A stretch of DNA of 64,000 bases from Escherichia coli (GCF_013122565.1 NZ_CP053258.1), one strand, 5' to 3'; shown: positions 2,297 to 43,043, numbered from the stretch's first letter. The notes: generated from the letters alone by a model not told the origin. Numbers and translations: made by a program.

Positions 2297-3238
2297 TCAG
2301 AACAGATTATCAATGTTCATGCTGTAGGTTTTGCTCACCTTGTCGCTTATCGATTTCATCTGCTGAATCATGTTGGTGAGTTTACGGGCATAGTGAGGAT
2401 CGGTGGCATAGCCCGCGTCCTGTAGGGCCTGCGCCCCCTGCTCCGCACTCGCGGCGGTCGTCACGGCGGCGTAGCGCGGGTTACGTGTTAACAGCCCAAC
2501 GTAATCCGACAATGCTTCCAGATACGAGCTGTAGACCCGAAACTTCGCTTTTACTTTCTTCGCTTCGCCGTTTTCATATTCAGTCGTGGTAATTTCAGTG
2601 ACTGGCCCTTTCCAGTTGCCAGAGGCTTTGACACCAAACAGGTTATAGCTCGGCTCGCCGTTTTCGCGGCGGATTTGTCGTTGCCCCCAGCCAGATTCCA
2701 GCGCCGCCTGAGCGAGGATCAAATGATGTGGCACACCGCTTTGCTGGCTTGCCAGTTGGGCGGGCAGCGAGAGTTGCGCGAGGAATGCTTTACTGTCACC
2801 CGGCAGCGAATCATCGTAGTTACGTGGTACGGCCTTTTGCACCAGCTGAGAAAGCGTCTGATTTTGATAACGCACCACGGTTTCGAGCGGGAATTTCATC
2901 GGTGCTGCTGGCGTGGGCTCCTCTGGCAATGGTTGTTCTGGCATCATCTGTTTAACCATCATCTCTGCAAGCCCCAGACCTTTGCCCGCCGTCATCTGTT
3001 GGGCAATCTGCTGGTCATACATACTGGTATACAGGCGAGTGTGCTCGCTGCTGAACAGGCCATCTTTTGGTAAAGCGTCGCGCATGCTTTTCAACATCAT
3101 CTGCACGAACATCCCTTCCACCTGACGGGCCACCGGACGGATATTTGCCGCCGGATCTTCGCCCGCTTTCGCCTTTAGTTCGTTGAGTGATTGCGCATCC
3201 CAGGCCGCACTTGCCAGTAGTTTGCTGTCGCTGATCAT
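2297..3238 (-). CDS. flgJ: Flagellar rod assembly protein / peptidoglycan hydrolase FlgJ (313 aa)
   Basis: ORF contains [53 protein letters not shown]...; start chosen at ATG overlapping flgI stop (ATGA) rather than the longer track ORF. Confidence 0.9.
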   Translation of the reverse strand: MISDSKLLASAAWDAQSLNELKAKAGEDPAANIRPVARQVEGMFVQMMLKSMRDALPKDGLFSSEHTRLYTSMYDQQIAQQMTAGKGLGLAEMMVKQMMPEQPLPEEPTPAAPMKFPLETVVRYQNQTLSQLVQKAVPRNYDDSLPGDSKAFLAQLSLPAQLASQQSGVPHHLILAQAALESGWGQRQIRRENGEPSYNLFGVKASGNWKGPVTEITTTEYENGEAKKVKAKFRVYSSYLEALSDYVGLLTRNPRYAAVTTAASAEQGAQALQDAGYATDPHYARKLTNMIQQMKSISDKVSKTYSMNIDNLF

Positions 3239-4335
3239 CAGATGATTTCCAGTTTTGCCCGCAGACATCCCGCACTTTGCATTGATTGCAGTATGGACAT
3301 CAGATCCATCGGCGTAGCGCCCAGCGCATTGAGCGCGCGCACCACGTTATTGAGGCTGGCGCTGGAACGTACGCTTTGCAGCGAACCGCCGCTCTGGCGT
3401 AAATCGATCTGCGTTTGTGGAGTAACCACAGTCTGTCCACCACCAAACGGTGTATCTGGCTGGCTGACATTGGCCTGACGATTAACTGTTACTGAGAGAT
3501 TCCCCTGCGCTACCGCGCAGCTGTCGAGGGTCACTTCGCGATTCATCACCACCGAACCGGTGCGCGAGTTAATCACTACTTTAGCGTCCTGCGGGGTGAC
3601 ATTAACATGCATATTCTGAATATCGGCAAGGAAGCGGACCTGGGAACTGTTGCCACTCGGTACGCGCACCTGAATAGTCCGCGCATCTAACGCGGTGGCG
3701 CTGCCATATCCACGCACGCGGTTGATGGTGTCAGCGATTTGCTGCGCCATGCTGAAATCTTCGTCGTTAAGTTGCAAATTAAGGGTATTCCCGACGCCAA
3801 ACTGGCTGGGCAATTCACGTTCAATAACCGCACCATTGGTGATCCGTCCACCGTTCAGTTGGTTAACCTGAACACTGCTACCGCCAGCGGAGGCTCCTGC
3901 GCCGCCAACCAGAATATTGCCCTGCGCCAGCGCATACACCTGACTGTCAACGCCCTTAAGCGGTGTCATCAACAACGTACCTCCACGCAAGCTTTTGGCA
4001 TTTCCCATGGAAGAAACCACCACATCGATGGTTTGCCCCTGACGTCCAAACGGAGGAAGTGACGCTGTCACCATTACCGCAGCGACGTTTTTTAGCTGCA
4101 TATTGGTGCCCGTCGGAACGGTAATTCCCAGCTGTGAGAGCATGTTATTAAGCGTTTGTGTGGTAAACGGCGTCTGGGTTGTCTGGTCACCGGTGCCATC
4201 CAGCCCCACCACCAGACCATAGCCAATCAGTGAGTTTTGCCTTACCCCCTGAACACTGGTGAGATCGCGAATACGCTCAGCCTGAGCCGCCGTCGTGACC
4301 AGTAGAAGAATTAATGCAGAGAGAAATTTAATCAC
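3238..4335 (-). CDS. flgI: Flagellar P-ring protein FlgI (365 aa, GTG start)
   Basis: Translation (M)[30 protein letters not shown]... with signal peptide; synteny flgH-flgI-flgJ. Confidence 0.93.
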
Positions 4336-12876: not shown

Positions 12877-13800
12877 TTATTCACTCATCGCATCGCGCCA
12901 GATCTTGTCAACGATACGTTGCGCCAGCACTGCCTGTTCGCCGGCGGTTTGCGGAACTGTCTGATTTTGCACACATTCAATGAAGTGCCGCGCACAGCCG
13001 ACAAATCCACGTTGCTCAAGAGTGCTCTGCCAACCAGGAATCGGTTTATTCACTACACCCTGCCCACGCTCCTCACGCCATTCGCGCATATCCGTAATGT
13101 CGATGAGCGCACCGTCAGTCACGGCCTGCACGGTTTCACGCTGACTTCCGGCACGGCGATGCATACAGGTGGTGATCTGCAAAGGACCAGCCGAAAAATG
13201 GTGCTCGGCAAACAGCATTTCGCCAGCGTCGTTAGTCAGTAGCGTACCGCCATCCAGAGAGGCTTTGCCGCCCGACAACCACAGCGCGGTATCCACCACA
13301 TGCAGATAATCATCCAGCAACGTGAAATAAAGATCGTGTGGCCCGACACTATTGCTACGATGTTTATCCATTCTTAGCGAGGCTGCGGTGGCGAGTTGCG
13401 TTTTTAACTCTCCGTAGAGTGGTGCGAAACGACGGTTAAAACCGACCATCAACGTCAGTTTTTTCCGCGCCGCCAGTTCCACCAGCCGTTCAGCATCGCG
13501 CAGATTTTCTGCCAGCGGTTTATCGACACAGACATGTACACCCGCATTGAGTAACGTACTGACCACGTCAAAGTGGCTGGCGGTGCTGGAATGCACAAAA
13601 ACCGCATCGCAACTGGCGGCAAGGCTGGATAACGAATCGGCATAAGGAATGCGCCAGCTGTCACAAATTGGCAAGGCTTTCGCGCGCGTAGGCGACCAGG
13701 CTCCCTGTAACGTCCAGTCAGACGCTGCTGCCAGCACCGGTAACCACGCTTTTTGCGCAATGCCGCCTAATCCCACTACGCCGATACGTAATTTTTTCAC
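12877..13800 (-). CDS. yceM: Gfo/Idh/MocA-family oxidoreductase YceM (MviM), 307 aa, GTG start
   Basis: Translation (V/M)KKLRIGVVGLGGIAQKAWLPVLAAASDWTLQGAWSPT... with Rossmann GxGxxG; start 1 nt after yceH stop. Confidence 0.88.
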   Translation of the reverse strand: MKKLRIGVVGLGGIAQKAWLPVLAAASDWTLQGAWSPTRAKALPICDSWRIPYADSLSSLAASCDAVFVHSSTASHFDVVSTLLNAGVHVCVDKPLAENLRDAERLVELAARKKLTLMVGFNRRFAPLYGELKTQLATAASLRMDKHRSNSVGPHDLYFTLLDDYLHVVDTALWLSGGKASLDGGTLLTNDAGEMLFAEHHFSAGPLQITTCMHRRAGSQRETVQAVTDGALIDITDMREWREERGQGVVNKPIPGWQSTLEQRGFVGCARHFIECVQNQTVPQTAGEQAVLAQRIVDKIWRDAMSE

Positions 13801-13801
13801 T

Positions 13802-15044
<1,243 letters not shown>

Positions 15045-26427: not shown

Positions 26428-26802
26428 ATGACCATGTACGCAACGCTTGAAGAAGCCATTGACGCTGCACGCGAAGAATTTCTTGCAGACAACCCCGGCA
26501 TCGACGCCGAAGATGCGAATGTGCAACAGTTCAATGCCCAAAAATACGTTTTGCAAGACGGCGACATCATGTGGCAAGTTGAGTTTTTTGCCGACGAAGG
26601 GGAAGAAGGTGAATGTTTACCTATGCTTAGCGGTGAAGCCGCGCAAAGTGTTTTTGATGGCGACTATGATGAGATAGAGATCCGCCAGGAGTGGCAGGAA
26701 GAGAATACATTACATGAATGGGACGAGGGGGAATTTCAGCTTGAGCCACCGCTGGATACTGAGGAAGGACGGGCAGCAGCTGATGAGTGGGATGAACGTT
26801 AA
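26428..26802 (+). CDS. msyB: Acidic protein MsyB (124 aa)
   Basis: Translation MTMYATLEEAIDAAREEFLADNPGIDAEDANVQQFNAQKYVLQDGDIMWQVEFFADEGEEGE... Confidence 0.92.
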   Translation: MTMYATLEEAIDAAREEFLADNPGIDAEDANVQQFNAQKYVLQDGDIMWQVEFFADEGEEGECLPMLSGEAAQSVFDGDYDEIEIRQEWQEENTLHEWDEGEFQLEPPLDTEEGRAAADEWDER

Positions 26803-27030
26803 TCACTCATACGGGCCATGATGAATGTCGATCGGCAGCAGTAAAGTATCAAAAACCAGGGAGAATGGCAGATCAAGGATTGTGACATAACGCCAGGCGG
26901 AGTCACGCACATCCCATTGCACACCGGGATAATATTGGTTGCCATGCCCCTGCCCCGGTATAGTGCGGCTAATGATGCTGCCACAGCCACTCAGCAAGGT
27001 CACCATGATGCTCACCACAATTAAACGCAT
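26803..27030 (-). CDS. yceK: Lipoprotein YceK (75 aa)
   Basis: Translation MRLIVVSIMVTLLSGCGSIISRTIPGQGHGNQYYPGVQWDVRDSAWRYVTILDLPFSLVFDTLLLPIDIHHGPYE (lipobox LSGC). Confidence 0.88.
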   Translation of the reverse strand: MRLIVVSIMVTLLSGCGSIISRTIPGQGHGNQYYPGVQWDVRDSAWRYVTILDLPFSLVFDTLLLPIDIHHGPYE

Positions 27031-27202: not shown

Positions 27203-31385
<4,183 letters not shown>

Positions 31386-32832: not shown

Positions 32833-34263
32833 TTACAATAACCATTCCACGGGCAATATCGACGCCAGTCTGACCATAACCCGCTTCCAGAAACTGGTGG
32901 CGGGTTCTTTTTTGAGAATAATCTCTTTCTTTGCATGACGATCAACCCAGTTGATCCGTCCCCACCTGTCCAGACGGAGCTGCCAGGCCGCATCATACTG
33001 GCTCTGAATAAAGCGTTTATCAATTAACTGTGCCAGCGTTTCGCTCTCTATCACGAAGCCCATTTCAGTATTGAGCAATGTTGAACGCGGATCGAAATTG
33101 AAAGAGCCGATAAACACCGTTTTACCATCGATGCTAAAGGTTTTAGCATGCAGGCTGGCACCGGAATTACCGGTTATGCCGCGATCGTGTAACGTACTAC
33201 TTTGTTCACGCGTCGGCTTGAGTTCATATAATTCCACGCCATAGCGGAGCAATTTTTTGCGCCAGCGCGCGTATCCGGCATGGACGACAGCAACATCGTT
33301 AGCGGCAAGAGAATTGGTTAGGATCGCAATCTTTACCCCTTTTCTCACCATCCGTAAGAGTTGCGCCACACCTGCGCGTGTCGGTACAAAATAGGAAGAG
33401 ATAATATCGATGCGTTCACTGGGTGAGCCCATGATATCGAACAGGCGCTGCGGTAACAGTGAATGCCGTTTTGCCTTGCCCTCCCCTTTCGCCGGATCAT
33501 CACTTAATAAACGTGTTTTCGCCCAGATAAGCGGCAACGTTCCATCAACCAGATGATTTATAAACGGACTGGATTCCATTTTGCGTAAATAACGATGCGT
33601 CATGGCATCGTTATGCCAGGAGGCGGGTAACTCGATGCGATCCGCCATTTCACCTTCCGGGACATCCAGCACCTGCTGTAAGGGTGAAACCGATTTGCAA
33701 TACCAGTAGCGGGCGAAATCATCGGCAACGTCCTCTACAACTGGTCCTATTGCCATGACATCTAAATCCGAAAAAAGTGGCTCTTCCCCTGCCCCAAAAT
33801 AGGCATCACCAATATTTCGTCCTCCCACCAGCGTCACCACACCATCGACAGTGAAACTTTTATTGTGCATACGGCGATTGAGACGGGAAAAGTCGGTGAT
33901 ATAACCAAGCGGACGCAGCAAGCGAAACGAGAAAGGATTAAAAAGCCGGACTTCAATGCGGGGATGACTGTCAAGCAAGCGTAAAATGTCGTCAAGTCCG
34001 GGCGTATTGTTGTCGTCCAGCAACAAACGGACGCGAACGCCACGCTTTGCTGCGGCTAACAGGGCGGAAAACAGTAACCGACCCGACATATCGTCCTGCC
34101 AGATGTAATACTGAACATCCAGCGTATGCTCTGCCATTTCGGCCAGACGATACCGGGCGGCAAACGCATCCAGACTTTTCTCCAGAGGAAAAAGGCCACA
34201 CTGACCGGGATGTTGCGAACACAGTGGCAGCACCGCGCTCGCCAGCCGGGGCAAATCATTCAT
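32833..34263 (-). CDS. clsC: Cardiolipin synthase C ClsC (YmdC), two PLD HKD motifs; start uncertain (ATG at 34263 chosen; longer ORF to 34323 possible)
   Basis: Translation ...[58 protein letters not shown]...HNKSFTVDG...HAKTFSIDG... Confidence 0.85.
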
Positions 34264-34789
34264 CTCCTTGTTGGGTAAGGAGTCTTTCGTATAGGTGGGC
34301 GTTTTCTTCATCATAACAGACAAAGTATACCTGTTCGGGTAAAGCGTGACGGGTAATAAATTCTGAAACGGTTTTTACTGCGATTTCAGCCGCTGCCGCA
34401 CGAGGGTAACCATAAACCCCAGTACTGATTGCAGGAAAAGCCACTGACGTATAGCTGTTTGCCGCCACCAGTCGTAGGCTATTGAGATAGGCATCCTGCA
34501 AAAGCTGGTCTTCGTTTTGTTCACCACCACGCCAGACTGGCCCGACGGTGTGCACTACGGCTTTAGCGGGAAGATCGCCTGCAAGCGTAATAACGGCATG
34601 CCCCGTAGGGCAATCGCCCTGTTGTTGCCTGACTTTTAAACATGCATCAAGCAGGGCCGGACCCGCTGCGCGATGAATGGCCCCATCGACGCCGCCGCCT
34701 CCCATTAATGACGGATTAGCCGCATTCACAATCACATCAACGGCCAGTTTGGTAATATCACCCTGCACAACATGAATACGCGTTTTCAT
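34256..34789 (-). CDS. ymdB: Macro-domain O-acetyl-ADP-ribose deacetylase YmdB (177 aa)
   Basis: Translation [68 protein letters not shown]... Confidence 0.93.
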
Positions 34790-42955: not shown

Positions 42956-43043
42956 GGTGAGGTGTCCGAGTGGCTGAAGGAGCACGCCTGGAAAGTGTGT
43001 ATACGGCAACGTATCGGGGGTTCGAATCCCCCCCTCACCGCCA
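42956..43043 (+). tRNA. serX: tRNA-Ser (anticodon GGA), serX/serW type
   Basis: 88-nt sequence GGTGAGGTGTCCGAGTGGCTGAAGGAGCACGCCTGGAAAGTGTGTATACGGCAACGTATCGGGGGTTCGAATCCCCCCCTCACCGCCA with long variable arm, anticodon loop CUGGAAA, 3' CCA; divergent from ghrA as in K-12. Confidence 0.95.

Follow-up and report, generated by a model that had tools for sequence, protein, structure and literature searches.

Overlapping genes are common in the operons of Escherichia coli, where the literature puts the share of overlapping operon pairs above 30%, and a recent review lists −4, −1, and −8 as the spacings enriched in all prokaryotes, three in number. Translational coupling is most efficient at spacings of −4 to +3, and a deeper overlap cuts coupling faster than a wider spacing does. 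Huber et al. (2019) reported that four of five overlapping E. coli pairs are strictly coupled and that bioBF is uncoupled. Saito et al. observed that depletion of RRF leaves the ratios of downstream to upstream ribosome density unchanged, even at overlapping pairs, and they favor de novo initiation.

We compared these systems with five tight junctions in the window, the whole 64,000-nucleotide stretch of E. coli DNA analyzed here (GCF_013122565.1, NZ_CP053258.1). Like trpB-trpA and the pairs of Huber et al. (2019), the window junctions connect co-directional operon genes through −1 or −4 overlaps, with the downstream Shine-Dalgarno (SD) sequence located inside the upstream coding sequence. Unlike the Huber et al. 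(2019) pairs, two of the window pairs have a spacing of −8 and, according to published data, their starts can work alone in vitro. The original prediction took the overlaps to indicate translational coupling. The overlaps are indeed real, the starts are correct, and the spacings fit, but overlap alone is no proof of coupling and independent initiation is seen in vitro. The reading that we prefer, with a probability of roughly 0.6, is partial, non-obligatory translational coupling at long-conserved, ordinary operon junctions, where we infer the effect of upstream translation in vivo.

An ORF map and similarity searches show that the window contains flgL, flgBCDEFGHIJ, murJ-yceM-yceH-rimJ, opgGH, ymdB-clsC, and the csg genes, extending to ghrA, with this chromosome segment reversed in orientation relative to K-12. 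A rare island begins after tRNA-Ser(GGA) (42956-43043) and is found in its entirety in 3 of 5426 complete E. coli genomes. Annotation was transferred from the best-matching genomes, and each gene was verified as an intact ORF in the window; the gene ends agree with the PGAP annotation of the closest genomes and with the curated K-12 record. The genes of all five junctions lie on the minus strand. Three of these junctions have the following features.

3236..3240, minus strand: flgI stop/flgJ start junction, TGATG, spacing −1, read directly
3238..4335, minus strand: flgI, P-ring protein, 365 aa, GTG start (Pfam FlgI, 3.8e-139, and annotation transfer)
2297..3238, minus strand: flgJ, rod cap/peptidoglycan hydrolase, 313 aa (Pfam Rod-binding and Glucosaminidase)
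13798..13804, minus strand: yceH stop TAA, one base, yceM GTG start, spacing +1
13802..14449, minus strand: yceH (DUF480), 215 aa (Pfam DUF480, 2.3e-62)
12877..13800, minus strand: yceM, Gfo/Idh/MocA oxidoreductase, 307 aa (Pfam and annotation)
13807..13810, minus strand: GGAG SD sequence of yceM, within the yceH coding sequence, 6 nt before the GTG
29739..29746, minus strand: opgG stop/opgH start junction, ATGAATAA, spacing −8
29739..31274, minus strand: opgG (mdoG), 511 aa (annotation transfer and K-12 annotation)
27203..29746, minus strand: opgH (mdoH), 847 aa (annotation, K-12 record, conserved MNK start)

The flgI/flgJ junction had been described as an ATGA at 3236-3240, implying a 4-nt overlap. 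These coordinates are correct, but the string is TGATG and the overlap is 1 nt: the flgI stop TGA occupies 3240-3238 and the flgJ ATG occupies 3238-3236, with one base common to both. An ATGA is also present at 3238-3235, but its TGA is out of the flgI frame. The other two junctions read as originally described. The opgG stop (TAA, 29741-29739) overlaps the opgH start (ATG, 29746-29744) within the 8-nt string ATGAATAA, and the yceH stop (TAA, 13804-13802) is separated by a single base (13801) from the yceM GTG (13800-13798). Spacings and junction strings at all three sites are identical to those in K-12, where nt 1137371 is common to flgI and flgJ, the opgG and yceH ends fall at 1110870 and 1126804, and the opgH and yceM starts at 1110863 and 1126806, respectively.

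Such junctions are no more frequent in the window than is usual. Overlaps occur in 4 of its 56 co-directional neighbor pairs (5 of 56 if the PGAP start of clsC is used), and the spacing falls between −8 and +4 in 11 of the 56. The five junctions are typical, already annotated operon architecture, which permits linked translation without proving it, and the four of chromosomal type are the same as in the curated K-12 annotation. Overlap at the junctions leaves no space for a terminator or promoter between the genes. The flgBCDEFGHIJ and mdoGH genes are each co-transcribed.

The flgI/flgJ junction is strongly conserved. Within E. coli, the 51 nt around it are identical in 5362 of 5423 complete genomes. 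A degenerate pattern matching the conserved FlgI C-terminal motif, run against a single genome from each species, yielded 120 flgI loci, and a FlgJ-like ORF directly follows flgI in 112 of the 114 loci that have enough downstream sequence. We then recorded the first flgJ start codon at or after −8 in 111 loci, leaving out the window. This codon lies at −1 in 27 loci (20 TGATG, 7 TAATG) and at +1 in 22; 61 loci have it within −4 to +3 and 99 at or before +15. Two further Photorhabdus loci, in which a TTG at −4 lies ahead of the ATG at −1, bring the −1 count to 29/111. Every one of the 17 Enterobacterales loci sampled has the −1 overlap (E. albertii, Citrobacter, Pseudescherichia, Enterobacter, Klebsiella sp., Pantoea, Yersinia, Photorhabdus, Rahnella, Acerihabitans, Proteus, and one metagenome-assembled genome). 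Across the Enterobacterales, the flgI stop alternates between TGA and TAA, and the overlap is retained. The FlgJ N-terminus (residues 1-35) is conserved across genera.

An upstream ATG at 3268 was considered as the flgJ start and rejected: this codon is present only in E. coli and E. albertii, and in Yersinia the open frame reaches back only 16 nt, or 4 nt, from the flgI stop. The last four flgI codons show only a small per-position excess of SD-like sequence (z = 0.9-1.95, with species that are not independent). No test of flgI-flgJ coupling was found in the literature searched, and a paper on integration of the flagellar region makes no mention of overlaps.

Similar conservation is seen at opgG/opgH, where 5384 of 5424 complete E. 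coli genomes carry the same 51 nt across the junction. The string CCTGCCA-ATGAATAA is invariant in five opgGH lineages, while adjacent Leu codons and those following MNK differ. Every OpgH homologue down to 53% identity has an MNK N-terminus, and the TRAINSPOTTER N-terminomics table lists an OpgH N-terminal peptide at the annotated start. For YceM, positions 1-120 of the Pfam GFO_IDH_MocA profile align with residues 4-121, placing the Rossmann/NAD-binding domain from residue 4 onward; the yceM start is therefore not further downstream. None of the 120 flgI loci from other species extended as far as yceH/yceM.

The remaining two junctions of the original prediction are an 8-nt overlap between ToxR-like and ToxS-like genes and a 4-nt overlap between CbtA-like and YeeW-like genes.

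52649..52656, minus strand: regulator stop/partner start junction, ATGAATAA, spacing −8
52649..53521, minus strand: ToxR/MarT-like membrane-anchored winged-HTH regulator, 290 aa (Pfam Trans_reg_C)
52168..52656, minus strand: ToxS/VtrC/FidL-like partner, 162 aa, N-terminal membrane anchor and beta-barrel
44532..44535, minus strand: CbtA stop/YeeW-like start junction, ATGA, spacing −4
44532..44906, minus strand: CbtA-family toxin, 124 aa (Pfam CbtA_toxin, 7e-61)
44080..44535, minus strand: YeeW-like DUF5983 gene, 151 aa (Pfam DUF5983_N and DUF5983)

Kinch et al. (2022) described VtrA/VtrC, ToxR/ToxS, and MarT/FidL cassettes as co-component signal transduction systems in which the two ORFs commonly overlap in part, one example being the cat/atg overlap of MarT/FidL, and co-transcription of marT and fidL has been reported. 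The island pair shares this organization. A membrane-anchored winged-HTH regulator is followed by a membrane-anchored lipocalin-like partner, and the partner gene overlaps the regulator 3′ end in a shifted frame. The coordinates 52649-53521 and 52168-52656 give the overlap of 8 nt, again ATGAATAA, as predicted. The regulator comprises a Trans_reg_C domain (residues 35-109), a transmembrane segment (approximately 173-195), and a 95-aa Cys-containing tail, and its best PDB sequence matches are the DNA-binding domains of ToxR (8e-9) and CadC (5e-6).

The 162-aa partner, with a transmembrane segment at residues 5-28, had no match in direct Pfam, NCBIfam, or PDB sequence searches. A profile built from three relatives retrieved about 40 proteins with lengths near 160 aa, and Pfam FidL_like matches 16 of the 35 members aligned; in contrast to the known cassettes, the island partner is tied to FidL_like via profile search only. 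Its AF2 model (pLDDT 92.7) gave as the four best PDB matches in Foldseek chains of ToxS (8u2f) and VtrC (5kew, 5kev), with E = 8e-3 to 5e-2, probability 0.99-1.0, and target-normalized TM-scores of 0.52-0.58. Like known co-component partners, the island partner has conserved N- and C-terminal cysteines: in the 35-member alignment C158 is invariant and C34 is at least 90% conserved, which fits a putative disulfide of the FidL-branch type between the first and last barrel strands.

Only two distant partner homologues were found among 5.8 billion proteins (35% and 33% identity; loci L124 and L125). In both, the partner homologue follows a Trans_reg_C gene with the same 8-nt ATGAATAA overlap, and the atg is set inside a cat (His) codon as in MarT/FidL. 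This string is thus invariant in three lineages of the pair despite 33-35% protein identity. Within E. coli, the pair is present in 3 of 5426 complete genomes. The ToxR-like and ToxS-like labels hold, given the Trans_reg_C domain, the ToxR match, the FidL_like profile link, and the ToxS and VtrC chains as top structural matches. Based on sequence and the structural model, we assign the island pair to the ToxR/ToxS-type co-component sensors, as a new and divergent member with a predicted function.

The CbtA-like and YeeW-like genes (44532-44906 and 44080-44535) overlap by the expected 4 nt, ATGA. A second ATG directly after the overlap (ATGATG) means that a −1 reading is also possible. The same 4-nt overlap and ATGATG are present in K-12, between the cbtA end at 2077943 and the yeeW start at 2077940. 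The CbtA_toxin domain, the YeeU antitoxin upstream, and the DUF5983 gene downstream reproduce the order and overlap of K-12 CP4-44, and the CbtA/YeeW module occurs in 4927 of 5426 genomes. The window cassette fits a CbtA/CbeA type IV toxin-antitoxin module with a downstream YeeW, as judged from domains and gene order. The window YeeW-like gene differs from K-12 yeeW in being a paralogue of about 86% identity without the native 3′ end, which was lost via a 291-bp deletion (relative to L002 5102-5392); its DUF5983 match ends at profile position 73 of 90.

Published start-site data cover several of these genes. In INRI-seq, a purified system containing retapamulin translated synthetic mRNAs in which just 30 nt of native upstream sequence preceded 150 coding nt. 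The published table identifies peaks at the starts of flgJ (0, 7.4, 5.8, 10.0, and 6.4), opgH (23.5-33.1), yceM (32.6-41.4), and yeeW (9.2-16.2), the last being the K-12 paralogue of the window gene. An alternative flgJ start gave only a weak peak in one replicate. Initiation in this system proceeds without upstream translation, indicating that coupling at flgJ, opgH, yceM, and yeeW is not obligatory. The in vivo Ribo-RET data of Meydan record no peak for flgJ, opgH, yceM, yeeW, or clsC, apparently because of low expression.

We estimated SD strength as the anti-SD duplex energy in the 20 nt upstream of 68 gene starts (median −5.9 kcal/mol). The genes downstream of the four overlaps have values of −3.3 (flgJ), −1.9 (opgH), −2.4 (ToxS-like partner), and −2.9 kcal/mol (YeeW-like), weaker than other window genes (Mann-Whitney p = 0.004, from only four genes). 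This weakness could merely mirror the coding constraint of the upstream gene. The GGAG of yceM has a duplex energy of −7.3 kcal/mol. We also folded the 120-nt junction regions; none of the five folds better than its dinucleotide shuffles (z = +1.2, +0.5, +1.35, +0.6, and −0.3), and local fold energies around the starts are close to the window median.

Several other explanations for the tight junctions were weighed against these data. The overlaps could be annotation artifacts, with the true downstream starts located further 3′, as the original prediction itself had allowed. In-frame alternatives exist at opgH ATG 29716 (codon 11, the only nearby one), flgJ GTG 3133 (codon 36), and yceM GTG 13776 (codon 9). 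Their use is contradicted by conservation, since Met11 of E. coli OpgH is Leu in other genera and the flgJ alternative would cut off 35 conserved residues, as well as by the observed MNK... N-terminal peptide of OpgH, by the YceM domain, whose GxGxxG strand would be cut, and by the INRI-seq peaks at annotated starts. We consider such artifacts extremely improbable. Coupling through RNA unfolding, in which the start is hidden in a hairpin that only a ribosome on the upstream gene opens, is one of two standard models, and the centroid fold of yceM does pair part of the region around its SD sequence. The folding results reveal no masking hairpins, leading us to reject unfolding as the main mechanism; isolated fragments also initiate in vitro. 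This model is very unlikely.

A stronger competitor, although still one we regard as rather unlikely, is that initiation is only ever independent, with free 30S subunits binding at each site and the overlaps arising as a neutral by-product of genome compaction. ATGA and TGATG readily arise from a start codon, upstream translation is not needed for the INRI-seq peaks at flgJ, opgH, yceM, and yeeW, and the unstructured junction regions suit de novo entry. Against this, flgJ and yeeW give low INRI-seq signals, and the SD sequences at the four overlaps are significantly weaker than those of other window genes. The junction strings are also invariant while flanking synonymous sites change, and the flgI stop switches between TGA and TAA with the overlap kept. 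These last two observations suggest a non-neutral constraint, part of which dual coding alone could account for. The combination of weak SD sequences and strongly conserved junctions favors some dependence on upstream translation. The −8 spacing of opgG/opgH and the island pair is outside the −4 to +3 optimum and counts against coupling.

In the partial, non-obligatory coupling that we prefer, a ribosome ending the upstream gene would already be over the next start, which lies within, or one base from, the stop. Upstream translation would then raise initiation at the weak-SD starts of flgJ, opgH, and the ToxS-like and YeeW-like genes, with the terminating ribosome or a subunit being reused or the region being kept open. 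The same weak-SD starts would also initiate alone at a low level. With its good GGAG, yceM probably initiates largely independently.

A further tight junction, ymdB/clsC, was absent from the earlier list.

34252..34314, minus strand: ymdB/clsC junction, with clsC start candidates ATG 34314 (−59), ATG 34263 (−8), and TTG 34254 (+1)

In the K-12 annotation, clsC (473 aa) begins at the TTG separated from the ymdB stop by a single base, and PGAP places its start at ATG 34314 (493 aa), producing a 59-nt overlap with ymdB. A second in-frame ATG lies at 34311. All five genera in which ymdB adjoins clsC have an in-frame ATG at the ymdB C(Y/F)D(D/E)E codons, and only three of those five have a clsC start near the ymdB stop; Salmonella and one other enterobacterium have no canonical clsC start there. 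In INRI-seq, the clsC start scored 0 in all five replicates, with no peak, though the RNA was abundant; the construct, based on the K-12 TTG, lacked the upstream ATG. No ClsC-specific NCBIfam model that would fix the start was found. According to reviews, ClsC output is higher "by an unknown mechanism" when the clsC clone includes ymdB, and ClsC depends on ymdB co-expression. We tentatively propose from the conservation pattern that the conserved clsC start may be ATG 34314, inside ymdB, rather than the K-12 reference TTG. Alternatively, clsC could be the one strictly coupled gene in the window.

The significance of the listed junctions is small. They confirm that the gene starts in the segment are correctly placed, and the segment fits the normal prokaryotic −1, −4, −8 pattern. 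For the island pair, the retention of one invariant 8-nt overlap in highly diverged relatives would fit matched production of both proteins, and in characterized relatives the two proteins form a 1:1 complex. If clsC does start at ATG 34314, clones of "clsC alone" designed from the reference annotation would lack the real start and the first 20 residues, and the mis-set start would explain the published dependence of ClsC on co-cloned ymdB; strict coupling would explain it too. The ymdB/clsC junction may offer a simple, testable explanation for an open question in E. coli cardiolipin synthesis.

Many β-proteobacteria end flgI with the same wording: the last four FlgI codons (L-E-V/I-I; window 3241-3252) read CTGGAGGTGATC among the flgI loci of other species (L004-L123). 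This is a perfect extended Shine-Dalgarno sequence lying a few bases upstream of flgJ, and where flgJ starts at a spacing of 0 to +3 the median duplex energy is -14.9. The E. coli counterpart is CTGGAAATCATC, a decayed form. Codons favoring the Shine-Dalgarno sequence show a small excess at the flgI end, with z = 0.9-1.95 per position for species that are not independent of one another. When the core flg region (1-25000) is compared with 5426 complete E. coli genomes, the best match reaches 98.9% identity, and the source lineage therefore has no close representative among them.

Two unrelated gene pairs share an identical 8-nt overlap, ATGAATAA, at 29739-29746 and 52649-52656. In both pairs, Glu is the last residue of the upstream protein and Met-Asn are the first residues of the downstream protein. 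The convergent genes msyB (plus strand) and yceK (minus strand) have contiguous stop codons with 0 bases between them (26802-26803), as in K-12.

The start of clsC is ambiguous at its junction with ymdB:
34252-34314, minus strand, ymdB/clsC junction
34256-34789, minus strand, ymdB
32833-34314, minus strand, clsC

The curated K-12 annotation places the start at a TTG at +1 (473 aa). PGAP instead begins the gene within ymdB, at an ATG that makes the two overlap by 59 nt and yields 493 aa. This upstream ATG is kept in 5 of 5 genera and is the sole canonical start in Salmonella. Published in vitro data, obtained with synthetic mRNAs carrying 30 nt of native upstream sequence (INRI-seq), record zero initiation at the K-12 start. 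The ambiguous start may be the reason that ClsC depends on ymdB, a requirement so far without an explanation. Enterobacterial ClsC proteins have no N-terminal lipobox; one is present (LTAC, LTGC, TSGC) in the homologues P0239, P0275, and P0277, from Burkholderiales, Achromobacter, and another proteobacterium.

The window also contains an island whose nearest match, at 99.5%, is a baboon isolate:
42956-64000, island adjoining tRNA-Ser(GGA)
52168-53521, ToxR/MarT-like regulator and FidL/ToxS/VtrC-like partner, a co-component sensor
55993-61190, fimbrial operon
Within the island, CP4-type module: DUF4942, YeeW-like, CbtA, YeeU, YeeT, RadC, antirestriction, DUF932
Also within the island: GTPase, IS66 remnants, ydeO-like fragment, zinc-ribbon pseudogenes

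Relative to strain PapRG-06-5 (L002 5102-5392), a 291-bp deletion at about 44097-44102 has eliminated DUF957 altogether and cut off the DUF5983/YeeW-like gene at its 3′ end, leaving the latter with a foreign C-terminus. The fimbrial chaperone ORF (56619-57329) has a possible ATG start at 56619, giving 236 aa; in a related strain, PGAP starts it at GTG 56763, and the resulting 188 aa looks short for a PapD-type chaperone.

The sensor pair lies in a stretch of 33.5% GC and occurs in only 3 of the 5426 complete E. coli genomes. Chaperone-usher fimbrial genes are found a few kilobases away both in the window and beside its distant homologue in Enterobacter hormaechei (L124), and the pair might regulate these nearby genes.
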